This document shows, piece after piece, positions 1,252 through 53,897 of a stretch of 53,897 nucleotides of DNA (the first letter of the stretch is position 1; every line of letters begins with the position of its first letter). The DNA comes from a virus (lineage: Duplodnaviria; Caudoviricetes): positions 1-53,897 of the IMG/VR virus record IMGVR_UViG_3300013094_000063, one strand, 5' to 3'. The notes beneath the pieces are model-generated. The model did not search any database, was not told the origin of the DNA, and saw nothing but the letters and a program-made list of their open reading frames with translations. Both the position numbers and the translations under genes were made by a program.

Positions 1252-2040
1252 ATGTCTAATGACATTAAACAATACCTTCTCAAAAATTCTGTTCTTCCTA
1301 AAGAACATATTATAGATCGATATCTAAAATTTATCGATTATTATAAAAATATTAAATTCGATGGCTATATCGAAAATCACCATATCATTCCTCGATCGTT
1401 CAAAGGTACTAATGATAAAAACAATCTAATTAAATTAGGTGCCAGACATCATTATATTGCCCACCTGTTATTAGCGAAGGCAACTAATAATCCTAAAATG
1501 ATTAAAGCATTACACAAAATGGTTTATTCAACAAAGGGCGATGTTCAACGTGATTACAAAATTACCAGCAAAATATATGCGTATCTTAGAGAAGAACACG
1601 CAAAGGTTGTTAGCGGTTATAGTAAAAATACAGTAGTCGCCAAACAAATTTATACAGAAGAAATTAAAAGAATTCCTAAAAAATTATTTAATATGTACAA
1701 TGGTATTTTATATGAAGCCTTGGCTAAAAATCGAAAAGATTCAGAAGAAACAAAAATTAAAAAACAAGCCGCTAGCAAAAGGCCGAGAGAGCCGTACAAA
1801 CAAGGATTACGAAGTAGAAGTTTAGCCGCATCTAAATATTCATACAGCACTCCCTTGGGATTTTGCGAGAACAGCAACGATTTATTAAAACTATATCCAA
1901 CATTTACCAAAAATACATTGACTGTATTAGATAATAATGCTATAATAACTAAACGATTTTGCTATTTTCATAAAGATTTTTTTCCGTATATCGGAAAGAC
2001 ATTCGAGGAATACGGCATTACTAAACAGAAAAGGATTTGA
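1252..2040 (+). CDS. Free-standing HNH homing endonuclease (Mob-like)
   Basis: ENHHIIPRSFKGTNDKNNLIKLGARHHYIAHLLL HNH motif, Lys-rich, AT-rich. Start moved from 1177 to ATG 1252 (GGAG at 1240-43). Stop directly abuts queE. Confidence 0.88.
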   Translation: MSNDIKQYLLKNSVLPKEHIIDRYLKFIDYYKNIKFDGYIENHHIIPRSFKGTNDKNNLIKLGARHHYIAHLLLAKATNNPKMIKALHKMVYSTKGDVQRDYKITSKIYAYLREEHAKVVSGYSKNTVVAKQIYTEEIKRIPKKLFNMYNGILYEALAKNRKDSEETKIKKQAASKRPREPYKQGLRSRSLAASKYSYSTPLGFCENSNDLLKLYPTFTKNTLTVLDNNAIITKRFCYFHKDFFPYIGKTFEEYGITKQKRI

Positions 2041-3978: not shown

Positions 3979-4403
3979 TTAAAAAATTACTCAAAAAATG
4001 GATCGGATTAGATGAGATCGAAGCCGCTACCGAAATAGCCCAACAAAAATTCGTTGAAGCTACACAGGCCGCAGAAGAGGCTGTAGAAAAAGAACGATTG
4101 GCTAAACTGAGTCCAAAAGAACTAGCCACAGAGGCCAAAGAACCTTGGGTCAATGTCATACAGACACACGTTGCCAAAGATGATCTCAAGAATGGTTTTT
4201 TCGAACTTGACTGGAACGAGTATTTCGTGCTACAATTAAGAACTGCCGGATATAGTGGCACAACAGAAGAAGAAGTTGTAGATCAATGGTTCCAAGAACT
4301 CTGCAGAAACATAGGCGCTGAAGAAGGCGTTGACATGACTCGTAGAGGTAGTGGATTTGTTAATAGAGCCCTAAGAGACGATGGAAGAACTGAGGTTTAT
4401 TGA
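3975..4403 (+). CDS. Hypothetical phage protein
   Basis: ATGA overlap, AAGGA RBS; acidic protein with GFFELDWNEYF and VVDQWF; coupled to the RNase H gene. Confidence 0.8.
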   Translation: MIKKLLKKWIGLDEIEAATEIAQQKFVEATQAAEEAVEKERLAKLSPKELATEAKEPWVNVIQTHVAKDDLKNGFFELDWNEYFVLQLRTAGYSGTTEEEVVDQWFQELCRNIGAEEGVDMTRRGSGFVNRALRDDGRTEVY

Positions 4404-5395
4404 TGTCAAAGACATACATATTGGTTGATACAGCAAATTTATTCTTCCGAGCTCGTCACGTTATGCGTGGCGACCTAAATGACAAGATAGGTATCAGCAT
4501 ACACACGGTACTGAGCGGTGTTCGCAAGGCCTGGAGAGATTTCAAAGGTGATCATGTGGTATTCTGCCTAGAGGGTCGAAGTTGGCGTAAGGACTACTAC
4601 GCACCTTACAAGCGACAGCGTAGTGATGCCCGTGCCGCACAGAGCCCAAAAGAACAAGAAGAAGATCGTGTATTTTGGGAAACATTCGATCAGTTCAAAG
4701 ATTTCATCACCAACAAGACCAACTGTACTGTCTTACAGAATCCACAGTTAGAAGCAGATGATCTCATCGCTGGTTGGATACAGACGCATCCACAAGACAA
4801 TCACATCATCATATCAACTGACGGCGACTTCGCACAGCTGATAGCACCAAACGTAAAACAATACAATGGGGTCATGCAGGTCACTACTACCCACGAAGGC
4901 TATTTCGATGAAAAGGGTAAACCTGTGGTAGATAAGAAGACCAAAGAAGTGAAACCTGCTCCGGATCCAGAATGGTTGTTGTTCGAAAAATGTATGCGTG
5001 GTGATACCAGTGACAATATCTTTTCAGCCTATCCAGGCGTGAGAGAAAAAGGCACAAAAAATAAAGTTGGACTCCGTGAAGCGTTCGCCGATAGATCCAG
5101 CAAAGGCTATAATTGGAATAACATGATGCTACAGAAATGGGTAGATCACGAAGGAGTCGAACATCGTGTCCTAGATGACTATAGCCGCAATGTACGTCTC
5201 TGTGATCTTACTCAACAACCAGATGACATCAAGGAGATCATCAAGGAGACCATCTCAACCGCTACACAGGCAGAGAAATCAATTCCACAGGTAGGAGTGC
5301 GTTTCTTGAAGTTCTGTGCCGAATATGATCTACAGAAGATCAGTGAACAGATAGACAGCTATGTCCAACCATTAAATTCGAGGTATGTACTATAA
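4403..5395 (+). CDS. rnh: T4-type RNase H / 5'-3' exonuclease (FEN family)
   Basis: ILVDTANLFFRA, SWRK..Y..YK, LEADDLIA, STDGDFAQL, GDTSDNI motifs; TGATG coupling. Confidence 0.92.
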   Translation: MSKTYILVDTANLFFRARHVMRGDLNDKIGISIHTVLSGVRKAWRDFKGDHVVFCLEGRSWRKDYYAPYKRQRSDARAAQSPKEQEEDRVFWETFDQFKDFITNKTNCTVLQNPQLEADDLIAGWIQTHPQDNHIIISTDGDFAQLIAPNVKQYNGVMQVTTTHEGYFDEKGKPVVDKKTKEVKPAPDPEWLLFEKCMRGDTSDNIFSAYPGVREKGTKNKVGLREAFADRSSKGYNWNNMMLQKWVDHEGVEHRVLDDYSRNVRLCDLTQQPDDIKEIIKETISTATQAEKSIPQVGVRFLKFCAEYDLQKISEQIDSYVQPLNSRYVL

Positions 5396-5865
5396 TGTCA
5401 ACAACTAAAGTATTAGTTCCCAACAAGGAATGGTTAATTAAAAACGGTGAATTTAAGATCGGTAGTATAATCAAACAGAAAAAAGGTTATACCTTCAATC
5501 GTAATGGACAGAGTATTCCATTTGACGACTTAGATGAAGTCAAATCACAATTGGGAATTATTAAACTAGCCGAACCTATCAAGAAATCAACAGATACCAT
5601 AACTAATAAAGCGATCTATGATTATCCCTGCTCGAGCAAACCATACGAACCTGTCTACAGTGTCAAGGATAAATTGCCTCTATTTGCCAAGAGCTCAAAG
5701 AGCAAGAGCCAATACTGCGCCGGCTACTATGTGATCAAATTCCGTAAAGGTTGGGTTAAAAGTTTCTGTCCGAAATTAATCACATTGGAAAGATATCCTT
5801 ATCACGGACCTTTCAAGACCGAAGCAGAAATGAAGAGCATGTTAAACACGGTTAATAAATTATGA
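5395..5865 (+). CDS. Hypothetical phage protein
   Basis: TAATG-coupled ORF, 156 aa. Confidence 0.8.
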   Translation: MSTTKVLVPNKEWLIKNGEFKIGSIIKQKKGYTFNRNGQSIPFDDLDEVKSQLGIIKLAEPIKKSTDTITNKAIYDYPCSSKPYEPVYSVKDKLPLFAKSSKSKSQYCAGYYVIKFRKGWVKSFCPKLITLERYPYHGPFKTEAEMKSMLNTVNKL

Positions 5866-6083
5866 AACAGCTAAACACCTTACCTATCGAATCTTTCCTA
5901 GAAAAAGCCCGTATCGCTATACGCAGTAATCAACGCAATCTTACCTTAACCATAGATGAAGTTACCAATCTGCAGAACAGCCTAAGTGTGGTTATGACAC
6001 GTTTAACCGGAGAAATGGATCAGATAGTGGCATCTGCACAGCAGGGTCCAACAGAGGTTAAAATAGACGGTGGTGGTTTCTAA
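5862..6083 (+). CDS. Hypothetical phage protein
   Basis: ATGA overlap; 73 aa ending IDGGGF. Confidence 0.75.
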   Translation: MKQLNTLPIESFLEKARIAIRSNQRNLTLTIDEVTNLQNSLSVVMTRLTGEMDQIVASAQQGPTEVKIDGGGF

Positions 6084-6090
6084 ATTTTTG

Positions 6091-6098
6091 GATAAATA
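6091..6098 (+). promoter_or_regulatory. Late-type promoter box GATAAATA
   Basis: Intergenic, ~30 nt before GTG 6127. Confidence 0.65.
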
Positions 6099-6126
6099 TA
6101 TACGTACATTTAAGAGAGCGTATATC

Positions 6127-6426
6127 GTGAGTCGTCCAAAACCAAAAGTATTATTAGAAATCACTAACAAAAAAACCTATAAAACCGAACAGGTATTAGA
6201 AGCAGAGGCTATCTGGGCTGTGTTCTATCAGGATCAACCCATTAATCTAAAAACCAGTAGTGTGATAGTCAATCAGTTGGGTCCAAAATATAAAAAGGTT
6301 AGTTTTTCAAACTCAGGTCATGCTCTTAATCTCGCTGAAAAACTCAATAAACTATTCCAAACCCAGGACTTTTCTGTGTATAAACTTACCACGGGAGAGA
6401 AGATAACCGATGGGTCTAAAGACTGA
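6127..6426 (+). CDS. Hypothetical phage protein (MSRPKPKVLLE...)
   Basis: In-frame GTG at 6127 after a promoter box and AGAGAG; preferred over the track start at 6070. Confidence 0.75.
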   Translation: MSRPKPKVLLEITNKKTYKTEQVLEAEAIWAVFYQDQPINLKTSSVIVNQLGPKYKKVSFSNSGHALNLAEKLNKLFQTQDFSVYKLTTGEKITDGSKD

Positions 6427-6775
6427 ACTCACCCAAAAAGTAGCGGCACATCACGGACTAGAAGATAAACTTTCACAATGCCGCGTGGCATGGTGGCAGG
6501 ACCCACGTGATCAAGATTACGGATTCCAACTGACCACTGAAGGGTTTATAGCGTTGACAGATGCTGATATCAAGAGCTATCCCATAAAGTTCGAAGAAGA
6601 ACTCTATATAACCAATCAGTTGACTATTTGGTTAAACAGGCACATGCCCTGCCCATTTTTCCTAACTCGAGACAGAATCTATGTATTCAGCGAACATATG
6701 GCTGTACAACTGGTGTTGTTTTCTGGCAACCTAGAGCGTTATATACGGGCTAAAATAGATAAATTAAAAGACTGA
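6410..6775 (+). CDS. Hypothetical phage protein
   Basis: 121-aa ORF overlapping the previous gene, purine-rich RBS. Confidence 0.75.
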   Translation: MGLKTELTQKVAAHHGLEDKLSQCRVAWWQDPRDQDYGFQLTTEGFIALTDADIKSYPIKFEEELYITNQLTIWLNRHMPCPFFLTRDRIYVFSEHMAVQLVLFSGNLERYIRAKIDKLKD

Positions 6776-6804
6776 TTGATCTTTTCCAGAAATTCCTGTA
6801 TAAT
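6776..6804 (+). promoter_or_regulatory. Sigma70-type early promoter
   Basis: TTGATC-17 nt-TATAAT upstream of the MoxR gene. Confidence 0.8.
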
Positions 6805-6853
6805 AATATTATTGTAGCAACAAAATATTACCAACACACTAACAAGGAATATC

Positions 6854-7936
6854 ATGGCAGAAAAGATCAGTAGCAATCGTACAGTCACTCCAAACGAAGC
6901 CAAACGCAGTATCCGTAAATGTATCAAGGTACAGCGTCCTGTATTCATGTGGGGTCCTCCAGGTATCGGTAAAAGCGATATCGTTAAACAGATTGGCGAA
7001 GAACAAAATCGTGAAGTAATCGATGTACGTTTAAGTCTTTGGGAACCTACAGACATCAAAGGTATTCCCTATTACAACAGTAATTCAAATACTATGACAT
7101 GGGCACCTCCAGCAGAACTGCCTACTGATCCAAATTCTACTGCTATCTTATTCCTTGATGAGTTGAACTCAGCGGCTCCTGCTACACAGGCGGCGGCTTT
7201 CCAGTTGGTATTGAATCGCCGTGTTGGTACTTATGTGCTTCCAAAAGGTGTGTCAATCGTTGCCGCGGGTAATAGAGAAGCTGACAAAGGTGTTACATAT
7301 CGTATGCCAAGTCCGTTGGCCAATCGTTTCGTACACGTCGAATTGAAAAGTGATTACGAAGATTGGTTAGAGTGGGCCGTCAATAACAAGGTGCATGAGC
7401 AGGTCGTAGGTTATATTGGTTTCGCCAAAAACGACTTATATGATTTCGATCCAAAATCTAGTTCACGTGCTTTTGCCACTCCACGTTCATGGTCATTCGT
7501 AAGTGAATTGCTCAAAGATGATGACTTAGACGAAGGTACGCTGACTGATTTAGTAGCAGGTTCCGTTGGTGAAGGGCTGGCTGTGAAGTTTATGGCACAC
7601 CGCAAGGTAGCTAAACAGATGCCTAAGCCAGAAGACATCCTGTCAGGTAAAGTGGCCAAATGCGATATCAAAGAGATCTCCGCTATGTATTCGTTGACTG
7701 TGAGTATGTGTTATGAGCTCCAGACAGCTAATCAGAAAAAGGTCAAGAACTGGGATGGTATGGCAGATAACTTCTTCCAGTTTATGATGGATAATTTTCC
7801 GACTGAATTGGTAGTGATGGGAGCGAAAGTGGCTCTCACATCCTATCAGTTACCGTTCGATGCCAGCAAGTTAAAGAACTTCGATCGTTTCCATCAGCAG
7901 TATGGAAAATACATCATACAGGCGATGGAAAATTAA
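6854..7936 (+). CDS. MoxR-like AAA+ ATPase (AAA_5 type)
   Basis: Walker A GPPGIGKS, Walker B ILFLDE, AAGN sensor, LANRF arginine finger, TPRSW. Confidence 0.92.
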   Translation: MAEKISSNRTVTPNEAKRSIRKCIKVQRPVFMWGPPGIGKSDIVKQIGEEQNREVIDVRLSLWEPTDIKGIPYYNSNSNTMTWAPPAELPTDPNSTAILFLDELNSAAPATQAAAFQLVLNRRVGTYVLPKGVSIVAAGNREADKGVTYRMPSPLANRFVHVELKSDYEDWLEWAVNNKVHEQVVGYIGFAKNDLYDFDPKSSSRAFATPRSWSFVSELLKDDDLDEGTLTDLVAGSVGEGLAVKFMAHRKVAKQMPKPEDILSGKVAKCDIKEISAMYSLTVSMCYELQTANQKKVKNWDGMADNFFQFMMDNFPTELVVMGAKVALTSYQLPFDASKLKNFDRFHQQYGKYIIQAMEN

Positions 7937-8568
7937 ATAGAGCCCGAAAGGGCTCTTTTGTTTTCCCAATATAATCGTCTTTTCTCTGCCATCTTTGCCC
8001 GGGTCTCGGGGCTTTGAACTCTTCCACGCAAACCTGCAGATATTTTAGCTCGTGTTTCGTCCGATGATTTAGTACCAGACCTTATTTGGGACATAAGTTT
8101 TTTTTGAGCCTCAAACATAGGCTTGCCCTTATTGTGAGCTGGTTGTCCTTTTCTAGCCGCTGATATATTTCGCTTGCCTTGTTCAGAATGCGGTTTTTTC
8201 TTTTTACCTGTTTGAGCTAAAGATACATTCCTCCTATGCTCCTCAGTCAGATGATCCTTGGTAACAAAATATTTCCCGCCAATATTTTCATTAAACCAAT
8301 GTTCGTTATTAACTACATCCAATCTCTTCAATACACGATGTTCCCACTCTATAGCAGATGCCTTGTCACTAAATGTCTTTCGGATCTCGAATATGAAACT
8401 GTCGACCCCATGTTCTGTTATCAATCTTTTGATCTTTTTAGATGATGTGAAATAGTTGGTCCAGAGTTCTCCAGGATGGCATCCTCGGCGAGTTCGAACT
8501 CCGTAGTAGTGTTGCCCTGTGAGCTTAAATGTAATACGATAGGTAAATGGTGTATAAATATTATCCAC
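7933..8568 (-). CDS. GIY-YIG (Seg-like) homing endonuclease with NUMOD3 repeats
   Basis: FTYRITFKLTGQHYYG...YFTSS...EHRVL...FNEN, then HSEQGKRNIS, SDETRAKIS, SPETRAKMA repeats. Start placed at GTG 8568 (GAGGAG 7 nt upstream) rather than ATG 8583. Confidence 0.88.
   Translation of the reverse strand: MDNIYTPFTYRITFKLTGQHYYGVRTRRGCHPGELWTNYFTSSKKIKRLITEHGVDSFIFEIRKTFSDKASAIEWEHRVLKRLDVVNNEHWFNENIGGKYFVTKDHLTEEHRRNVSLAQTGKKKKPHSEQGKRNISAARKGQPAHNKGKPMFEAQKKLMSQIRSGTKSSDETRAKISAGLRGRVQSPETRAKMAEKRRLYWENKRALSGSI
7939..7964 (+). terminator. Rho-independent terminator after MoxR
   Basis: AGAGCCC-GAAA-GGGCTCT followed by TTTGTTTT. Confidence 0.85.
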
Positions 8569-8635
8569 GCTGTAACTCCTCATAGTTATAGAGCTCCTGG
8601 ATGTTGACGCATCGCGAGGGGCATTTTTATTTATA
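8569..8635 (-). ncRNA. Late promoter plus conserved structured leader (copy A)
   Basis: Minus strand reads TATAAATA AAAAT GCCCCT CGC GATG cgtcaa CATC C AGGAGC TCT A TAACT atgagg AGTTA CAGC; aligns with 53260-53327. Confidence 0.7.
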
Positions 8636-8653
8636 CCAATTTTGCCATATTTC

Positions 8654-8681
8654 TTGAATCTTTTTATAGATTATGTATAAT
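8654..8681 (+). promoter_or_regulatory. Possible sigma70-type promoter for the ParB-like gene
   Basis: TTGAAT-16 nt-TATAAT. Confidence 0.5.
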
Positions 8682-8688
8682 TAAATGA

Positions 8689-8754
8689 GTATCACATTTT
8701 TGCGATACACTATAAAATATTTTATAGAAAAACCGCCGAACTTTTTGAAGTCGG
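8689..8754. repeat. Cluster of three inverted repeats
   Basis: GTATCACA-tttt-TGCGATAC (8689-8708, one mismatch); perfect 18-bp palindrome CTATAAAATATTTTATAG (8710-8727); CCGA-a-CTT-tttg-AAG-TCGG (8736-8754). Confidence 0.7.
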
Positions 8755-8783
8755 TACCTTAACATTTATATAAAGGAAAAAGT

Positions 8784-9740
8784 ATGTTAAATCTATTAAG
8801 TCAATCTGCCTCTAAAGGCGTCTCAGCAGTTGAATTACCCAAAAGTCTACAACATTTAATCAATGGTCCTGCCATTGGTGTTCCCGCTCCTGGAGATAGA
8901 ATTTCTGTAGATACTCCGATGAGTATTGTTCAACGACCATTACATAAATCTTATGTTATACAGCATATTGAAAAAAGCCAGTGTGTTGATTGGAATTTAT
9001 TTGGATATGTAACTGCTGTTCGAAATCAAGAAGGTAATTTAGAAATGATAAATGGCCAGCATCGAACCAGTTTAGTTAAAACACTGTTGCCTGGCTGTAA
9101 AGAAATTCCGGCACATATTATCGACAGTAATGATTCAGAGTATGTGGCAAAATTATTTGGGCTCATGAACGGAGGTGCTACCAGAAATGTAACCCGAGAA
9201 GAGAGATTATGGGCAGACGTTTTAGCTAAAGATCCAAAAGCTCTTCATGTTAAAGCAGTATTAGAAAAGTGCGATTTAGCCTGCGGTATGGTAAATGCCG
9301 CAGAAGGACGCATTGATGTTAAGTTGGCCAATTTTGAAAAATGTATTAGTTTTGGATCAGAAGAAGCACTAGTAAGAGCAATCAATCTAATAAGACAGGC
9401 ATGGCCAGGAAAAACAGCCATTGATAATTTATTATCTGGTCTAACAAGACTATTCGCTTTGCCACAATATAAAGATTTGTCCAACAATAAAATTGCTACC
9501 GGTAAGCATTTTGAAAAATGGTTTGTTGATATTGTTCCGGCAGTGTTAAGTTGGAATCAATTACAATTTAAGGTTTATCGAAATAATCCCCGCTGGTATG
9601 AAGGCATAGCTTATGGTATTGCTAAACAATTTAGGACCTACATGGTTGGTCAAGGACTTGTTAGTCCTGCTTTGAAAACTATTAAAGATATCTACACAAA
9701 AGGTATCGACGGGTCGATTAGTGACGACGACGAAGAGTAA
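8784..9740 (+). CDS. ParB/Srx-superfamily (DGQHR-type) protein
   Basis: VQRPL...DWNLFG...MINGQHR...AKLFGLMN motif order typical of ParB-like N-terminal domains; acidic tail; AAGGA RBS. Confidence 0.7.
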   Translation: MLNLLSQSASKGVSAVELPKSLQHLINGPAIGVPAPGDRISVDTPMSIVQRPLHKSYVIQHIEKSQCVDWNLFGYVTAVRNQEGNLEMINGQHRTSLVKTLLPGCKEIPAHIIDSNDSEYVAKLFGLMNGGATRNVTREERLWADVLAKDPKALHVKAVLEKCDLACGMVNAAEGRIDVKLANFEKCISFGSEEALVRAINLIRQAWPGKTAIDNLLSGLTRLFALPQYKDLSNNKIATGKHFEKWFVDIVPAVLSWNQLQFKVYRNNPRWYEGIAYGIAKQFRTYMVGQGLVSPALKTIKDIYTKGIDGSISDDDEE

Positions 9741-9748
9741 TTAAGAAG

Positions 9749-9764
9749 GGGCCCTGCGGGGCCT
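9749..9764 (+). terminator. GC hairpin, possible weak terminator or processing site
   Basis: GGCCC-TGCG-GGGCC just after the stop; no U tract. Confidence 0.4.
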
Positions 9765-9801
9765 ACTCTCACCTCACTAAAAATTACAAGGAAAAATAAC
9801 A

Positions 9802-10212
9802 ATGAATAAAAAGAAGCCAATAAGAAACTATAGATCCATCAGCGAGATGTTAGATGGTATAGGTGGTCACAAGCACAAAAAGAGTAACGAAGAACAACCA
9901 TATACCGGCTTACGAAGACCTGGCAACGAAAATAAACCATCAGATCCGTCGAAAACAGAAGATATAATAAGAATGATAAGGGAGAGGCATGAACAGGCCA
10001 AAGAACAACAGGCTAGTTTTCACGAGTTCAAAGAGTTGGAACCCGCTACCAATGCCATGGGACTCTACTTACAGATCGTCGAAGCTGTTCAAGGTGAAAA
10101 GGATCCAGAAAAGATCCGAGGTCATTTCGAATATATGCTACAGATGATTTTGGAAGATGTGCCCGACGACATGGCTTCATATATCAGTGATAAGATCTGG
10201 GGATTACCTTGA
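9802..10212 (+). CDS. Hypothetical protein
   Basis: 136-aa ORF with AAGGA RBS. Confidence 0.75.
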   Translation: MNKKKPIRNYRSISEMLDGIGGHKHKKSNEEQPYTGLRRPGNENKPSDPSKTEDIIRMIRERHEQAKEQQASFHEFKELEPATNAMGLYLQIVEAVQGEKDPEKIRGHFEYMLQMILEDVPDDMASYISDKIWGLP

Positions 10213-10237
10213 TATTTTCCAAAATATCTGTTATAAT
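10209..10237 (+). promoter_or_regulatory. Sigma70-type early promoter, extended -10
   Basis: TTGATA-17 nt-TATAAT with TG at 10229-30. Confidence 0.82.
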
Positions 10238-10270
10238 AGTGTATTACTAACACACACAAGGAAAAACAAA

Positions 10271-10447
10271 ATGGCCGTAAAATCATGGTATCTATCGGTA
10301 GTAGAAAAAGGCACTAACAAGGCAGTCGAAGGACTCAAGAGCAAGATGTTCTTCACCGCTCCGGATATGAACAAATGGGTTAAAGAACAAGAATTACAAG
10401 AAAAATATCCGCCAGAACAATACTATTACATCAAAGAAAACTATTGA
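10271..10447 (+). CDS. Small hypothetical protein (58 aa)
   Basis: ATG 10271 after promoter and AAGGA; track start 10157 lies upstream of the promoter. Confidence 0.75.
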   Translation: MAVKSWYLSVVEKGTNKAVEGLKSKMFFTAPDMNKWVKEQELQEKYPPEQYYYIKENY

Positions 10448-10472
10448 CCTTTTGGTAAAAAGAAGCTATAAT
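10444..10472 (+). promoter_or_regulatory. Sigma70-type early promoter
   Basis: TTGACC-17 nt-TATAAT. Confidence 0.82.
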
Positions 10473-10503
10473 AGTATATATATACAGTTAAAAAGGAGCC
10501 CAG

Positions 10504-11757
10504 ATGTCGTCAGTGATGAAAGCAGAGAAAACAGCTAAACCTAAAAAAACTCGTGAGTTTACTGCTGTTGAAAAGAACAAGATCGTAGAAAAACTAGTCA
10601 CTGCTCGTGTAGGCCTACTACTGCGACATCCATTCTTCGGCAATCTGGCTACTCGTTTAGAATTAGTTGATGCTAGTGATTGGTGCTCAACATTGGCTAC
10701 AGATGGTCGTAAATTTTATTACTCAAATGAATTTGTCAACAAGCTGACTCCAAAACAGGCAGAGTTTGGATTCGCACACGAAGTGCTACATAATGTATTC
10801 GATCACATGGGACGCCGAGATGGCAGAGATCCAACATTGTCAAACATCGCCGCTGACTATGCGGCTAATCAGATCCTCAAAGATGAACGTATCGGTGAAG
10901 TTCCCGAGTTTATCAAGATCTTCCAAGATAACAAATACCGTGGTTGGAGTTATGAGCAGATCTATAACGAGCTTTATGATAAAGCAGAGAAGATCGACAT
11001 CAGTGAGTTAGGTGAACTCTTAGACGAACATCTAGATGGTGAAGGTGATGAAGATGGGGATGGAGAAGGTGACGGCAAAGATGGCACAGGTCGTCCTAGA
11101 CTCTCCGCAGAAGAAAAGAAAAAGATACGCGATGAGATCAAAGAAGCCATGGTAGCCGCGGCACAGGCCGCAGGTGCCGGACGTATTCCAGCAGGTGTAG
11201 CACGCATGATCAGTGATTTCACAGAACCAAAGATGGATTGGCGTCAACTGTTACGTATGAGCATACAGAGCATCCTAAAGAGCAACTTCAGCTTCAGCCG
11301 TCCAAACCGTAAATCACAACACTCAGGTGCTGTGTTGCCAGGTATGATGAATGAAGAAACTATCGATGTATCTATCGCTATCGACATGTCAGGCAGTATC
11401 AGCGATAAACAGGCCAAAGACTTCTTATCAGAAGTCAAAGGCATTATGGACGAATATGTAGACTTCAAGTTAGATATCTGGTGCTTTGATACCCAGGTAT
11501 ACAATTATGCCAAATTCACCGGTGACACCGCTGATGAGATCATGAGCTATGAGGTCAAAGGCGGCGGCGGTACTGACTTCGATGTCAATTGGAAGTTTAT
11601 GCAAGATGAAGACATCGTTCCTAAGAAGTTTATCATGTTTACAGACGGATATCCCTGCGGTAGTTGGGGTGATGAGGACTACTGCGATACCCTGTTTATC
11701 ATACATGGCGACGAAACCATAAATGCGCCATTTGGCCAGACCGCTCATTATAAATAA
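10504..11757 (+). CDS. Metallopeptidase-like (HExxH) plus VWA domain protein (DUF2201 type), MoxR partner
   Basis: TLATDG, AHEVLH, NIAAD..N; acidic Gly linker; MIDAS DMSGS, GGGGTDF, FTDG. Confidence 0.9.
   Translation: MSSVMKAEKTAKPKKTREFTAVEKNKIVEKLVTARVGLLLRHPFFGNLATRLELVDASDWCSTLATDGRKFYYSNEFVNKLTPKQAEFGFAHEVLHNVFDHMGRRDGRDPTLSNIAADYAANQILKDERIGEVPEFIKIFQDNKYRGWSYEQIYNELYDKAEKIDISELGELLDEHLDGEGDEDGDGEGDGKDGTGRPRLSAEEKKKIRDEIKEAMVAAAQAAGAGRIPAGVARMISDFTEPKMDWRQLLRMSIQSILKSNFSFSRPNRKSQHSGAVLPGMMNEETIDVSIAIDMSGSISDKQAKDFLSEVKGIMDEYVDFKLDIWCFDTQVYNYAKFTGDTADEIMSYEVKGGGGTDFDVNWKFMQDEDIVPKKFIMFTDGYPCGSWGDEDYCDTLFIIHGDETINAPFGQTAHYK
11749..11756 (+). promoter_or_regulatory. Late promoter TATAAATA
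   Basis: Exact T4 late consensus overlapping the VWA gene stop, 12 nt before ATG 11769. Confidence 0.7.
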
Positions 11758-11768
11758 GTGAGTATATA

Positions 11769-12065
11769 ATGTCGCTTAGTCGTCAGGAAGTTAATCCTCT
11801 AGGTATTTTAGGTCTGCGTAAATTGAATTTTATTCCGGCTCATTTTACCAAGATTTCGGTAGATGTATCTGTGGATATCAAACTTCTAGATCGCTGGATT
11901 GGCTATAACTTAAATAGTAGGTATGCTATTAGACAAGGTTACAGTTTAGATTCAGATAATAAACTAATAGATGTTATAGAAATAGGTATAGAGGATCCAA
12001 AAGAAATATTAATGTTATCTCTAGGATGCCCTTATATACACTCAAACAACAAGGAAAAGAATTAA
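11769..12065 (+). CDS. Hypothetical phage protein
   Basis: 98-aa ORF after late promoter. Confidence 0.75.
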   Translation: MSLSRQEVNPLGILGLRKLNFIPAHFTKISVDVSVDIKLLDRWIGYNLNSRYAIRQGYSLDSDNKLIDVIEIGIEDPKEILMLSLGCPYIHSNNKEKN

Positions 12066-12066
12066 A

Positions 12067-12333
12067 ATGGAAAATCAAGAACAAGCTCAGACAACAACTC
12101 CAGAAGGAGTAGCACCACAGGCTCCAGCACAGCCAGAGTTCAGCATCGCTGATCTACAGAATCTACGTGCTATCGTTGACCTATCAGCCAAGCGTGGAAC
12201 ATTTACAGGTGCCGAACTGTCATCAGTAGGACAGGTATTTGATCGCTTAAATGCTTTCTTAAATGCTGTAGCACCTCCACAGCAGACTGCACAGACACCT
12301 GCTGATACTACAACGGACGCACCAGCAGCCTAA
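12067..12333 (+). CDS. Hypothetical phage protein
   Basis: 88 aa; helical core (IADLQNLRAIVDLSAKRGTF) with Pro/Ala/Gln-rich tails. Confidence 0.8.
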   Translation: MENQEQAQTTTPEGVAPQAPAQPEFSIADLQNLRAIVDLSAKRGTFTGAELSSVGQVFDRLNAFLNAVAPPQQTAQTPADTTTDAPAA

Positions 12334-12345
12334 TAGGAGACCGAG

Positions 12346-12942
12346 ATGAAACACATAGCAAAAATGAAAAACAATTCTGCTCGAGTTGTGGTAGCTTATA
12401 GAACTATCCCCGGAGATGCAGGAAGTGCTCTTGTAGTTGGAACACAGGGCCTACCAGATGCTTATCACGACAGTTTGATGCAGTTGGTACAGGAAGATGC
12501 CGGACAACAGACCAATGAACTAGCAGATGTCCTAGCGGTCCGTAAATTCCCAGATGGTACGAATATGTTGGAATTTTTGCATACACGTGGTCATCTCAAA
12601 AAGGTTCCTACCAATCTAGTTCTGATGACTCCTAACACTCAAACAACTATCCAGTTAGATGAGTTAAACAAGATGATCGCTGAACAAAAAGGCCTTACTG
12701 TAGATGACCTAGCTGTCAGTGAAGGCGTAGATGTTCCAGTTAAGAAATCTTCTAGTCAAGAAGAAGTAGTAGTCAGTGATGTACCTGCTGTTCAACCACA
12801 GGCTCCAACACCGGCTTCACTGCGTTCTAAAGCAGATGAATTATTGGCAGAAGCCAAGGCTCTACGTGAACTAGCAGACTCATTAGATAAACCAAAAGCC
12901 AAGGCAGCACCTAAAACTAAAAAGACCACGGTCACAGTTTAA
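12346..12942 (+). CDS. Hypothetical phage protein
   Basis: AGGAG RBS; 198 aa with coiled-coil and basic tail. Confidence 0.82.
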   Translation: MKHIAKMKNNSARVVVAYRTIPGDAGSALVVGTQGLPDAYHDSLMQLVQEDAGQQTNELADVLAVRKFPDGTNMLEFLHTRGHLKKVPTNLVLMTPNTQTTIQLDELNKMIAEQKGLTVDDLAVSEGVDVPVKKSSSQEEVVVSDVPAVQPQAPTPASLRSKADELLAEAKALRELADSLDKPKAKAAPKTKKTTVTV

Positions 12943-12963
12943 CGGGCCTAGAGTATTATCACG

Positions 12964-12991
12964 ATAGGGGCCTAGGCCCCTATATCTTTTT
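12964..12991 (+). terminator. Rho-independent terminator before thyA
   Basis: Perfect 20-bp palindrome ATAGGGGCCTAGGCCCCTAT (12964-83) followed by ATCTTTTT. Confidence 0.7.
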
Positions 12992-13001
12992 AAGGAATAA
13001 G

Positions 13002-13883
13002 ATGTTAAACGCAGATCATACATATACAAATGCACTCCACGAGATATTAGAAACAGGAGAACACAGAGAGGATCGAACAGGAACCGGTACTATCGGTGTC
13101 TTTGGAATGAATCTTAAATTTGATCTAGGCAAAGTATTTCCAGCCATAACCACTAAAAAATTAGCCTGGAGATCTGTAGTATCAGAACTGCTTTGGTTTA
13201 TCAGTGGCAGTGGCGATGAGCGCAGATTAAAAGAATTACTCTATGGCGATGCAAATTCAGACAAGAAAACCATCTGGTCAGATAATGAATCAGCTGACTA
13301 TTGGCAACGCCGTAAAAAGTTCAAAGGTGACCTAGGAAGGGTCTATGGAGTACAATGGCGTACCTGGCGTGCTCCGGTATTTGGTGCCAATCGAATGGGA
13401 GTAAAGCACATAGATCAGTTGATAGATCTGATCAACAATATCAAAAAGGATCCCTATAGCCGACGCCATATACTGTCAGCTTGGAATCCAGGTGAACTAG
13501 AATTGATGGCTCTGCCCCCTTGCCATATGATGGCACAGTTCTATGTTAGCAAGGATAACAAACTAAGCTGCCAAATGTATCAGCGTTCAGCAGATATGTT
13601 CTTGGGATTGCCATTTAATATCGCCAGCTATGCTCTATTGACACATATGATAGCCCAGGTATGCGGATTAGGTGTAGGATCGCTGACTATCTGTATCGGA
13701 GACGCCCATATCTATTCTAATCACGTAGATCAGGTAAAAGAACAGTTGTCAAGGAAACCATTTCCTCTACCAAAATTGATGTTGAGCCCAGGAATAGATA
13801 ATATATTAGATTTTACTATGGACGACATCGTCTTAGCAGACTATCAGTGCCACGATGCTATAAGAGCACCAATGGCTGTCTAG
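13002..13883 (+). CDS. thyA: Thymidylate synthase
   Basis: DRTGTGT, ELLWF, LG.VYG.QWR, SRR, MALPPCH, YQRSAD.FLGLPFNIASY, GDAHIY.NH; uninterrupted. Confidence 0.97.
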   Translation: MLNADHTYTNALHEILETGEHREDRTGTGTIGVFGMNLKFDLGKVFPAITTKKLAWRSVVSELLWFISGSGDERRLKELLYGDANSDKKTIWSDNESADYWQRRKKFKGDLGRVYGVQWRTWRAPVFGANRMGVKHIDQLIDLINNIKKDPYSRRHILSAWNPGELELMALPPCHMMAQFYVSKDNKLSCQMYQRSADMFLGLPFNIASYALLTHMIAQVCGLGVGSLTICIGDAHIYSNHVDQVKEQLSRKPFPLPKLMLSPGIDNILDFTMDDIVLADYQCHDAIRAPMAV

Positions 13884-15115
13884 ACTACCAGTACTTCTAT
13901 CACTCCAAAGCCCTGGTCTTGACTGCCTAGGGCTTTCGCTATTACAGCGTTTGGACTATGATCTTCGGTTATAGCCTGGGCATATCCGGCTGTGGTGCTG
14001 GTGACTAGTAGATCACCTCGTTGTACACGACCCACTACCTTGCAAGGTACACGACCTTTTAAGGCAATATAGGGGTGAGTTTCGTCGGTTCCTGCTTCGG
14101 AATTCATCTGATATGCTGGATTTTTGCTGACAATTCCAATGACTTTTACATCACCTGGAATATATGTAGTAGTAACTTCAGCTTCACCACCTATGACTAA
14201 TACAGTGCCTTCTTCATATAGATCATCTGCTTCATAGCGTTCTGCTAGGTCAGCAAATTGAGCCGATGAAGCCACAGTGTTCAGCACACCGTTGGCATAG
14301 GTAATACCACTATCTGTAACTAAACTAGTGCCGCCTGTACTGGTACTGGCCAATGGAACGTAGTAGGGACTAGTTACTGTGGTAGGTGTCACTGTAACGC
14401 CGGCAGCTGTTACGGCTGATAATGATTCTGCGGCAGTTCCCCAGAAGTAATAATCACTACCTCGGGTACTGCCCAAAGGTACATCTGGATTAACCAAATA
14501 TCCTGTGTTGGGATCTATGCTGTTGGCACCAGACAGTGTGATTCCTCTAACCACAACAGGGAAACGTGCAGGATCTAGATCTGTACTTTGATAAGGTATA
14601 AAACTAGGATCAGTTTCACTCATCACAGCGATAATCTTATTACCGATGGTACCTTTAAGGATGGTTATGGCAGGACTGCTGACATTAGAATATTCATCAT
14701 TAGGCAACCAATTGGCTTTGGTACTTAGGCTAGGTCCTATGATCTGATATGCGGATCCGTCGAAGGTTTTTAACAGTTGATTCTGGGTATCCCACCACAG
14801 GTCTCCTACTACACTATAAACAGGAATAGTAGATTGTATGCGGATGGTAGCTAGACCTTTGAAACTAGATCCATCATAGACTTTTAGTTTACTCTGGGTA
14901 GGATTCGTATCGAACCAGGTTTGGCCGATGATAGGTTTAGCTGGTTGAGAAGTATTGGCGAAATTTTCCAATAGATAGACGAAATTTTCGTTTATAGCCA
15001 GTCCATATCCTGCATAGTTCTTACCTACTAGATTTAGGCTGGTACTGATATCTACATTAGAATCATCTACTGTGGTTAATACTTTTCCGTCGGTTTTATA
15101 TATTAAGTATGGCAT
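13880..15115 (-). CDS. Tail fibre/baseplate-appendage protein with C-terminal chaperone-like domain
   Basis: N-terminal LNLVGKNYAGYG..INENF..LLENFA...GQ.WFD module; C-terminal ADLAERYEAD..Y..GTVLVIGG...IALKGRVPCKV. Confidence 0.8.
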   Translation of the reverse strand: MPYLIYKTDGKVLTTVDDSNVDISTSLNLVGKNYAGYGLAINENFVYLLENFANTSQPAKPIIGQTWFDTNPTQSKLKVYDGSSFKGLATIRIQSTIPVYSVVGDLWWDTQNQLLKTFDGSAYQIIGPSLSTKANWLPNDEYSNVSSPAITILKGTIGNKIIAVMSETDPSFIPYQSTDLDPARFPVVVRGITLSGANSIDPNTGYLVNPDVPLGSTRGSDYYFWGTAAESLSAVTAAGVTVTPTTVTSPYYVPLASTSTGGTSLVTDSGITYANGVLNTVASSAQFADLAERYEADDLYEEGTVLVIGGEAEVTTTYIPGDVKVIGIVSKNPAYQMNSEAGTDETHPYIALKGRVPCKVVGRVQRGDLLVTSTTAGYAQAITEDHSPNAVIAKALGSQDQGFGVIEVLVV

Positions 15116-53259: not shown

Positions 53260-53327
53260 GATAAATAAAAATGCCAGTCGCGATGTTGAAGCATCCACCG
53301 GCTCTAAAGTTTATGGAACTATCAGCA
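53260..53327 (+). ncRNA. Late promoter plus conserved structured leader (copy B)
   Basis: GATAAATA AAAAT GCCAGT CGC GATG ttgaag CATC C ACCGGC TCT AA AGTT tatgg AACT AT CAGC A; aligns with 8569-8635 (-). Confidence 0.7.
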
Positions 53328-53897
53328 ATGTATTTACAATACTATGTCTATGCCTATCTCAGGACAGACGGAACTCCTTATTATATAGGTAAAGGAAAAG
53401 GCAAAAGAGCAACTTCTAAAAGAAAAGGTGAAATTACCTGTCCAAAAAATCCTGCTCAAATTATAATGGTCGAACAAAATCTTAGTAATATAGGTGCGTT
53501 AGCAATAGAACGACGATTAATTCGTTGGTACGGGCGTAAAGACTTAGGCACAGGCATTTTAAGAAACTTAACCGACGGTGGCGATGGTACTGTAGGAGTT
53601 CGACGGACTGAAGAACAAAATAAAAAAAATAGGGAAAGACAGATTGGTATTAAAAAGCCTATCATTTCTGCAAAGAATAAAATATCTTTATTAGGAAATA
53701 CTAATGCCCGAGGAAATAAAGGAAAACCAAAGTCAGCAGAACATAAACTAAAAATGAGTTTGTCAGCAAAGGGTAAACCAAAGTCAGAAGCACAAAAGTT
53801 AAAACAATCACAAGCTATGTCCGGAAGGAAACAATCTGCCGAAGTTATTGCAAAAAGAACAGGTGCTACTATAGGAAATAAATGGTGGAGTAAGGAT
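53328..53897 (+). CDS. GIY-YIG homing endonuclease with NUMOD3-like repeats (runs off window end)
   Basis: Hand translation: [28 protein letters not shown]...[31 protein letters not shown]...[12 protein letters not shown]...[12 protein letters not shown]; no stop before the end. Not in the ORF track. Confidence 0.9.

Follow-up and report, generated by a model that had tools for sequence, protein, structure and literature searches.

A candidate antisense-RNA cassette with convergent promoter boxes ahead of homing-endonuclease genes in uncultured freshwater jumbo phages

Homing endonucleases are toxic selfish genes, and their restraint by phages is known mainly from the mRNA hairpins of T4. A possible second kind of restraint is suggested by a stretch of 53,897 nucleotides (nt) from a virus of the Caudoviricetes (IMG/VR record IMGVR_UViG_3300013094_000063), the whole of which is termed the window. 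Two divergent endonuclease genes in the window, genes A and B, are each preceded by a copy of the same short element, which an earlier note made from the letters of the window had interpreted as a structured leader of the nuclease mRNA. The conserved fold is instead selected on the strand opposite the nuclease gene. With a probability of roughly 60%, the element is a small antisense RNA gene that restrains selfish nucleases, in which two convergent promoters would face each other and one of them would produce an RNA of about 70 nt. The family to which the two copies belong, its covariation and its promoter-like and terminator-like signals are directly observed.

Both copies are present as the earlier note described them. 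Copy A runs along the − strand as TATAAATA (8635-8628), a first hairpin (8622-8593), TCTAT, a second hairpin, CAGC (8572-8569) and the GTG at 8568-8566. Copy B runs along the + strand as GATAAATA (53260-53267), a first hairpin (53273-53302), TCTAA, a second hairpin, CAGC (53323-53326) and the ATG at 53328. The stems of both copies pair as claimed, with one A-C mismatch apiece, and the leaders are indeed more conserved than the open reading frames (ORFs) behind them: the leaders are about 75% identical, versus 35% identity over 85 amino acids in the NUMOD3-repeat part of the proteins (BLASTP, 27.7 bits). A 25-nt pattern consisting of the box and first stem has exactly two matches in the window, copies A and B, and none in 100 shuffles; a third copy was looked for across the record and not found. 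Gene A starts at the GTG, as in its relatives, which read CAGC-GTG, and an ATG at 8583 falls within a hairpin loop. The element shared by the two copies is longer than first supposed and extends to a TATTTAY box in the early codons (8560-8553 in copy A; 53331-53338 in copy B). Below, SL2 denotes the first hairpin of the gene strand, and SL1 denotes the second hairpin together with the "linkers" that flank it. The features are as follows.

8628-8635, − strand: copy A TATAAATA box, predicted promoter of nuclease gene A (box position and TAAATA enrichment).
8593-8622, + strand: copy A SL2, with a 6-bp outer helix, a 4-5-bp inner helix and two bulged G on the + strand (covariation and folding).
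8623-8635, + strand: copy A AUUUUUAUUUAUA, directly 3ʹ of SL2, which completes the terminator-like hairpin.
8570-8591, + strand: copy A SL1, with an 8-bp stem and a loop, CCUCAU, complementary to the gene A Shine-Dalgarno sequence GAGGAG (folding).
8553-8560, + strand: copy A second TATAAATA box, in codons 3-6 of gene A, predicted antisense-RNA promoter.
8566-8632, + strand: copy A predicted antisense RNA, about 65-70 nt, with predicted ends (start from box spacing); fold −21.2 kcal/mol, z −2.75.
7933-8568, − strand: gene A, GIY-YIG (SegE-type) plus NUMOD3 endonuclease, 211 amino acids, GTG start (PF19835, 6.6e-6; PF07460, 1.1e-10).
53260-53267, + strand: copy B GATAAATA box, predicted promoter of nuclease gene B.
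53273-53302, − strand: copy B SL2, followed on the − strand by AUUUUUAUUUAUC (covariation and folding).
53304-53325, − strand: copy B SL1, with stems CUGA/UUAG and AGUU/AACU, one bulged U and the loop CCAUA (folding).
53331-53338, − strand: copy B TGTAAATA (on the gene strand TATTTACA, codons 2-4), predicted antisense-RNA promoter.
53262-53326, − strand: copy B predicted antisense RNA, with predicted ends; fold −15.5 kcal/mol, z −1.53.
53328-53897, + strand: gene B, a nuclease-like ORF whose N-terminus is GIY-YIG-like by eye and which continues past the end of the window.

Further homologues, which the earlier note had predicted, form a large family that was recovered by pattern scans of IMG/VR and by a covariance model termed R1. 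Scan 1, with the exact pattern TCGCGATG-N6-CATCCA-N3-GCTCTA, matched 84 stretches; together with the two window copies, these make 86 occurrences comprising 63 distinct 97-nt elements and 58 distinct 75-nt elements. Scan 2, from which the common inner helix was excluded, matched at least 120 further stretches, with 112 distinct elements among the matches listed. Pooled, and with scan 2 counted among those matches, the two scans yield the 183 distinct modules on which all counts out of 183 are based. Scan 2 also fixed CAGC, and the constancy of letters fixed by a pattern is partly by construction; CAGC was left unfixed in scan 1, yet it is at least 90% conserved. Model R1 found one or two copies per contig in five long contigs, with two copies in a 317-kb contig rated 89% complete.

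Covariation was among the checks proposed in the earlier note, and it is strong in both helices, as judged by shuffle tests and compensatory changes. Among 57 distinct rows of SL2, both sides change in 7 of 11 pairs, and none of 500 shuffles reached the observed score; the signal collapses in controls with a slid alignment. In the second set, which left the letters of inner-helix pairs 3 and 4 unconstrained, Watson-Crick pairing is found at pair 3 in 74 of 75 sequences (four pair types) and at pair 4 in 66 of 75 (three pair types). Copies found with the model also carry compensatory changes at pairs that scan 1 had fixed, including GTCGGT/ACCGAC, GTAGTT/AACTAC, GATA/TATC and GGGA/TCCC.

The pairs that depart from the Watson-Crick rule identify the selected strand. 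On the gene strand, the outer helix of 60 sequences (360 cells) holds 333 Watson-Crick pairs, 26 A.C, 0 G.U and 1 other, and that of the second set (75 sequences, 375 cells) holds 363 Watson-Crick pairs, 11 A.C, 0 G.U and 1 other, for a sum of 37 A.C versus 0 G.U. The loop-closing pair of the first hairpin is C.A in 46 cases, T.G in 8, T-A in 4 and T.C in 2. Because each gene-strand A.C corresponds to a G.U on the opposite strand, 88.7% of cells are paired in the sense orientation versus 98.4% in the antisense orientation. SL1 has the same bias: with pairs counted inward from the C-G pair of CTAA with TCAG, 151 distinct segments contain 849 Watson-Crick pairs, 217 A.C and 1 G.U on the gene strand. 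One constant pair supplies 148 of these 217 A.C cells, and the other 69 are at pattern-free positions. Since strand-symmetric mutation cannot produce one-sided wobbles, we conclude that the fold is selected on the strand opposite the nuclease gene.

Folding energies are in line with this assignment. SL2 is more stable as antisense RNA in 48 of 52 distinct sequences (mean −12.2 kcal/mol antisense versus −9.6 kcal/mol sense), and for SL1, the mean minimum free energy (MFE) is −5.55 kcal/mol antisense versus −2.33 kcal/mol sense, with the antisense value lower in 139 of 151 segments. RNAalifold predicts 18 pairs at −15.55 kcal/mol for the antisense strand, with CUGA paired with UUAG, versus 11 pairs at −13.12 kcal/mol for the sense strand, where the first hairpin stands alone. 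The stretches TCTA(A) and (T)CAGC, which had been described as unpaired linkers, therefore have another role: they pair with each other on the antisense strand and form the base of SL1. In the window, each predicted antisense RNA folds into two hairpins followed by a U-tail at the energies listed above. The sense leaders are no more stable than shuffled sequences (z +0.21 and −0.68), and the sense MFE structure of copy B is a different fold from the one that had been proposed.

The claim that the element is a structured leader of the nuclease mRNA is not supported by these observations, as nearly all of its non-Watson-Crick pairs are A.C on the gene strand and its sense leaders fold like shuffled sequences. 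In its broader form, this explanation would have the gene-strand hairpins act as a protein-binding operator, a riboswitch, a ribozyme or a 5ʹ-terminal stabiliser. The predicted mRNA start does lie at the foot of hairpin 1 (the spacer is 5 nt in 132 of 183 modules), where a 5ʹ-terminal stem could protect the mRNA; the Shine-Dalgarno sequence is within hairpin 2; and sense hairpin 1 still has a mean MFE of −9.6 kcal/mol. However, a leader acting as mRNA does not account for the one-sided wobbles (A.C versus G.U, 37 versus 0 in the outer helix and 217 versus 1 in hairpin 2), for a sense hairpin 2 that averages merely −2.3 kcal/mol, or for window leaders that are shuffle-like and, in copy B, have an MFE structure of a different kind. 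It is also without an Rfam match, and it leaves unexplained the TATTTAY box, which occurs in three frames. An mRNA leader is thus improbable, and the riboswitch, ribozyme and nuclease-cofactor readings that had been suggested gained no specific support. Likenesses to the K-turn, preQ1, guanidine-II and hammerhead or pistol RNAs were dropped by eye, with no matching core and no Rfam match.

DNA hairpins tolerate G.T, and one-sided wobbles could in principle suit a bottom-strand single-stranded DNA structure read in recombination or homing, like an integron attC site. However, no sign of a recombinase was seen nearby, and signals of the promoter and terminator kind suit RNA. A short leader peptide (MPLAMRQHPGAL in one window copy) is considered alongside it, as an ATG opens a similar-reading 12-codon frame in both window copies; the pair of explanations is highly improbable. 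The peptide was rejected outright: its "start" is GTG, TTG, ATA or GTA in relatives, the second subgroup has GTG-TAG, and the changes in the stems are compensatory rather than synonymous.

What the antisense strand encodes beyond its hairpins is indicated by the sequence on either side of them. On that strand, SL2 is followed by ACUUUUAUUUA, which is complementary to the forward box plus the A-rich spacer, and at least 5 T are present within 8 nt directly after SL2 in 170 of 183 modules. The arrangement is that of an intrinsic terminator, with a G+C-rich hairpin (SL2, mean −12.2 kcal/mol) and then a U-tract. In copy A, too, the U-tract of the predicted antisense terminator is complementary to that box and spacer. 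A simple terminator scanner did not flag SL2, because its stem is interrupted. At the other hairpin, 100 of the 106 SL1 loops scored carry the Shine-Dalgarno core when read on the gene strand; the antisense RNA would therefore present the complementary sequence in its loop.

Beyond SL1, the TATTTAY box lies 3-9 nt past CAGC in 176 of 183 modules, and the spacer is 4-6 nt in 167 of 183. On the gene strand of these 176 modules, the box reads TATTTA (149), TACTTA (20), TATATA (5) or TAATTA (2). With respect to the predicted start, it falls in each of the three frames (43, 11 and 5 of 59, encoding, for example, MNIY, MYLQ and MIFI), holds its distance to CAGC even where the ATG is upstream of CAGC (loci L006 and L045), and also precedes HNH proteins. 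Together, the three frames, the fixed distance to CAGC and the occurrence before HNH proteins argue that this second box is a signal at the nucleotide level rather than part of a protein motif. Read on the opposite strand as (A)TAAATA-N5-GC, it has the same layout as the forward box, (G/T)ATAAATA-AAAGT-GC. As in a cis-antisense gene, a promoter-like box on the opposite strand thus lies at a fixed distance from the predicted RNA 5ʹ end, as judged by sequence only.

These same signals bear on the explanation that the element is only an antisense-strand terminator or insulator, which would halt backward transcripts through the nuclease gene, would have no dedicated antisense promoter and would leave the TATTTAY box with some other role. 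The terminator features of 170 of 183 modules fit such a device, as do the genes flanking copy A, which are on the strand opposite the nuclease gene, and an upstream neighbour on the opposite strand at 26 of 59 scored loci. Yet at 33 of the 59 loci the upstream and nuclease genes run in one direction, and a terminator alone explains neither an SL1 with an anti-Shine-Dalgarno loop nor a box that is positioned 4-6 nt from the 5ʹ end of SL1 in 167 of 183 modules and in three frames. A terminator with no further function is therefore unlikely. The orientation of the upstream gene is mixed under a crude ORF rule (33 on the same strand and 26 on the opposite strand of 59 scored; 1 locus has none and 10 have too little flank), and as such it fails to discriminate between the readings.

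A wider survey of the records suggests that the sequence shared by the two boxes is a promoter core. The forward TAAATA box is present in 171 of 183 modules and precedes the stem base by 5 nt in 132. In the window and at loci L003-L086, no hexamer is more enriched than TAAATA ahead of the 529 ORFs that have no module before them (90 versus 14.1 expected; its complement, 30). In the interval −50 to −12 of 527 such ORFs, it occurs 76 times versus 8.2 expected, and all of its single-base variants are at most 2.8-fold enriched. The core is thus 6-9-fold enriched upstream of other ORFs in a strand-specific manner, at a median distance of 25 nt before the ATG. These figures make TAAATA a candidate promoter core of the jumbo-phage clade that carries the element. 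T4 late promoters, which serve the whole genome and depend on gp55/gp33, start the transcript about 6 nt after the box, and by that rule the starts would be placed here.

From these signals we infer that an antisense RNA is made, where its ends lie and in which direction it acts. The element would be an expression cassette of about 100 bp, moving together with free-standing homing-endonuclease genes among uncultured freshwater jumbo phages of one clade, and its two TAAATA-type promoters would face each other at a distance of about 60 nt. The gene-strand promoter would start the nuclease mRNA at the foot of SL2, if the T4 spacing rule holds here, giving a 5ʹ untranslated region (UTR) of about 60 nt. 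The opposite-strand promoter, located within codons 2-4 of the nuclease gene, would make an antisense RNA of about 65-70 nt starting at GCUGA. This RNA is predicted to consist, in order, of one unpaired 5ʹ G; SL1, with 8-9 bp and a loop that displays CCU, the anti-Shine-Dalgarno sequence; SL2, which is G+C-rich and has two bulged G; and the U-tract. SL2 and the U-tract would act as an intrinsic terminator, whose U-tract complements the nuclease promoter and its A-rich spacer. Because complementarity to the antisense RNA would extend over the whole nuclease 5ʹ UTR, ribosome-binding site included, the RNA is expected to curb translation or to cause decay of the duplex. Polymerases running towards each other from the two promoters may collide and add to the repression, and the outcome would be a toxic selfish nuclease held at a low level.

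Several observations weigh against this antisense-RNA reading. Of the 176 antisense boxes, 20 read TAAGTA, whose enrichment ahead of ORFs is only 2-fold. In three records, the complete T4 box TATAAATA shows no enrichment (10 versus 18 control matches in the 317-kb contig), so the "late promoter" label rests on the shorter TAAATA core. An A-rich forward box by itself would yield a U-rich antisense tail, and the constancy of the two bulged G and of the SL1 base exceeds what plain antisense pairing explains. In addition, both scans fixed TCGCG, CCA and CTCTA, so that sampled members share those letters, and the module sequences are akin to each other, so that counts are not independent events. 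Thirteen lake-water RNA runs hold parts of window positions 4000-13900 (best word share, 0.28); the four of these that were compared with the window consist of sparse unstranded contigs, none of which lies over 8026-8719, and they are uninformative on expression and strand.

The stem bases and bulges are near-constant across hundreds of phages while the rest covaries, which makes action in trans conceivable. The RNA of about 70 nt might act on the leaders of other members and so shut down competing nucleases, whether of its own phage or of one infecting the same cell, or it might be bound by a shared phage protein of the homing machinery. Such a role is improbable; if it were true, trans silencing would amount to RNA-based immunity between selfish elements.

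The antisense-RNA cassette can be set against several systems known from phages. In T4-type masking (I-TevI, segB, Aeh1 mobE and gene e), the ribosome-binding site is buried in a sense hairpin within which late transcription begins, so that the late mRNA is without the 5ʹ arm (PMC3014915). The two are alike in that the nuclease would be silent except from the promoter right before it and in that a TATAAATA-like box adjoins the structure. Unlike in T4 masking, however, the predicted start here precedes both arms of both hairpins, and selection on the fold acts on the opposite strand. Masking of the T4 type is not what the modules display: all arms are downstream of the box, the sense Shine-Dalgarno hairpin averages −2.3 kcal/mol, and pairing between the boxes is not significant. 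The last result bears on the possibility that the boxes pair together (AUAAAUA with UAUUUAU) in a read-through transcript and close a three-way junction over the start region, on the principle of T4 lysozyme and I-TevI. Complementarity between the boxes holds in nearly every member, the pairing lengthens to 10-15 bp in some lineages (−11 kcal/mol), and T4 offers a described precedent (PMC3014915). However, cognate flanks average −5.04 kcal/mol versus −4.73 +/- 0.23 for permuted ones, with 185 of 2000 permutations equal or better; many members, copy B included, reach only about −2 kcal/mol; and the AUG is left unpaired in the junction. Pairing between the boxes is consequently very unlikely to be the function of the element.

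The cassette would belong to a known kind of control, that by cis-antisense RNA, of which P22 sar, lambda OOP and S-PM2 CfrI are examples. The sar RNA of P22 is about 70 nt in size and covers the ribosome-binding site of ant. Both sar and OOP are cis-antisense small RNAs of phages (PMC5415839). The predicted RNA resembles both: a short RNA (about 70 nt) from a promoter facing the target gene, with its own terminator and complementarity to the target mRNA. However, sar and OOP are single-copy lysis-lysogeny regulators of temperate phages, whereas the present element would be a portable cassette on many unrelated nuclease genes. It differs further in that the same TAAATA box appears in both promoters, that the complement of the sense promoter also serves as the terminator U-tract, and that it is known from sequence alone. 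CfrI of cyanophage S-PM2 is an antisense RNA of about 225 nt that links a nuclease gene to psbA and whose function is unknown (Millard et al. 2010, ISME J, as described in PMC2984593). It likewise is an antisense RNA of a T4-like phage that overlaps a free-standing homing-endonuclease gene, but the RNA predicted here, which is compared with it by description, is about 70 nt and limited to the 5ʹ UTR.

A different resemblance is to the PeSL composite promoter-terminator cassettes of T4-like phages (Arbiol 2010; Comeau 2014), in which a terminator shares its strand with a sigma-70-like early promoter or a Mot middle promoter and which have been proposed as drivers of recombination (PMC4122927). 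Both kinds of cassette are small and conserved, recur as repeats, combine a promoter with a stem-loop and are linked to mobile or plastic genes, but the present element is set apart by a TAAATA box on each strand and by an RNA whose two hairpins covary. It was found to be portable, as the earlier note had supposed, in that it sits before ORFs bearing GIY-YIG, HNH and NUMOD3 domains.

The downstream genes were surveyed by a pooled Pfam scan of 58 ORFs, which returned NUMOD3 (23), GIY-YIG (8), SegE_GIY-YIG (4), HNH (8), HNH_5 (6) and HNH_3 (4); these are family counts, and the classes are not exclusive. Gene B was within this pool, for which per-protein families are listed for the first member only. 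Among 10 downstream ORFs scanned singly, 4 are without a family, and 2 more (L018 and L062) have only weak matches that are unrelated to nucleases or under the curated cut-off. The cassette is also absent from some nuclease genes: the 297-kb contig G002 has one model match and several NUMOD3 or HNH matches elsewhere. Its NUMOD3/HNH nuclease-like genes with no adjacent model match are at 54.4-54.7 kb, 102.0 kb, 157.4-157.9 kb and 181.8 kb. At L011, L020, L036, L047, L052, L057 and L094, among others, a co-directional upstream ORF ends 4-14 nt before the first stem, within the promoter box, which implies that the cassette was inserted flush against the stop codon of the preceding gene. Two further loci show modules in altered form. 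At L061 (700-960, − strand), a tandem duplication of about 95 bp places a truncated module (box, first hairpin and then unrelated sequence) immediately upstream of a complete one (36-bit model match). At L007 (2925-3001), a full module precedes a frame of a mere 8 codons and is without the TATTTAY box; a second intact module is at 7813-7888, and the first is possibly the remnant of a lost nuclease gene.

Outside these metagenomic contigs, few matches were found. Model R1 found no match in the genomes of three cultured phages, PA5oct, Phosso and Atu_ph07, to whose counterparts the gp46-like protein of the window is 44.7-49% identical. In blastn searches of 50,697 GenBank phage records, a 361-nt query had no match, and a 76-nt query had only seven 22-nt chance matches (E=2). 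Across 185,579 species genomes, the scan-1 pattern matched two small contigs of metagenome-assembled genomes (MAGs) only. They are L096, from a Woesearchaeota-labelled MAG (6,084 bases), and L097, from a Gammaproteobacteria MAG (682 bases), both of which are probably phage fragments binned into MAGs. The earlier note had recognised no named RNA family, and Rfam 15 indeed gives 0 gathering-level matches over the whole window; at E<=10 around both copies on both strands, there are unrelated weak matches only, none overlying the element. The literature searched contained no description of it. An IMG/VR-wide catalogue lists 8,495 unnamed RNA candidates, with no nuclease-linked motif in the part of its main text that was available (PMC10690425), and its supplementary list may already include this motif.

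Other parts of the window deserve brief mention. The record has a CheckV completeness estimate of 15%. A perfect 7-bp G+C-rich hairpin at 7939-7956, with T-runs on both sides, separates the end of a MoxR-like ATPase gene (+ strand, stop at 7936) from that of nuclease gene A (− strand) and looks like a two-way terminator. RNA contigs from three runs all end at 8025/8026, about 70 nt past this hairpin. At 1357-1434 (+ strand), a 289-amino-acid open frame has a weak HNH-like match (19.6 bits, under the cut-off), as is also the case in the related contig G004.

For the phages that carry it, the cassette suggests a second, RNA-against-RNA way of restraining homing endonucleases. It is compact and portable across unrelated nuclease families (GIY-YIG, SegE-type and three HNH types), and it is common in lake phages with no cultured member. 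It adds a covariation-backed RNA family that is missing from Rfam and provides a clear case of inferring the functional strand of an RNA from one-sided wobble pairs. Furthermore, it supplies a candidate promoter core, TAAATA, for an unstudied clade of jumbo phages. Its predicted design, in which a promoter would overlap the terminator of its own antisense RNA, is itself noteworthy.

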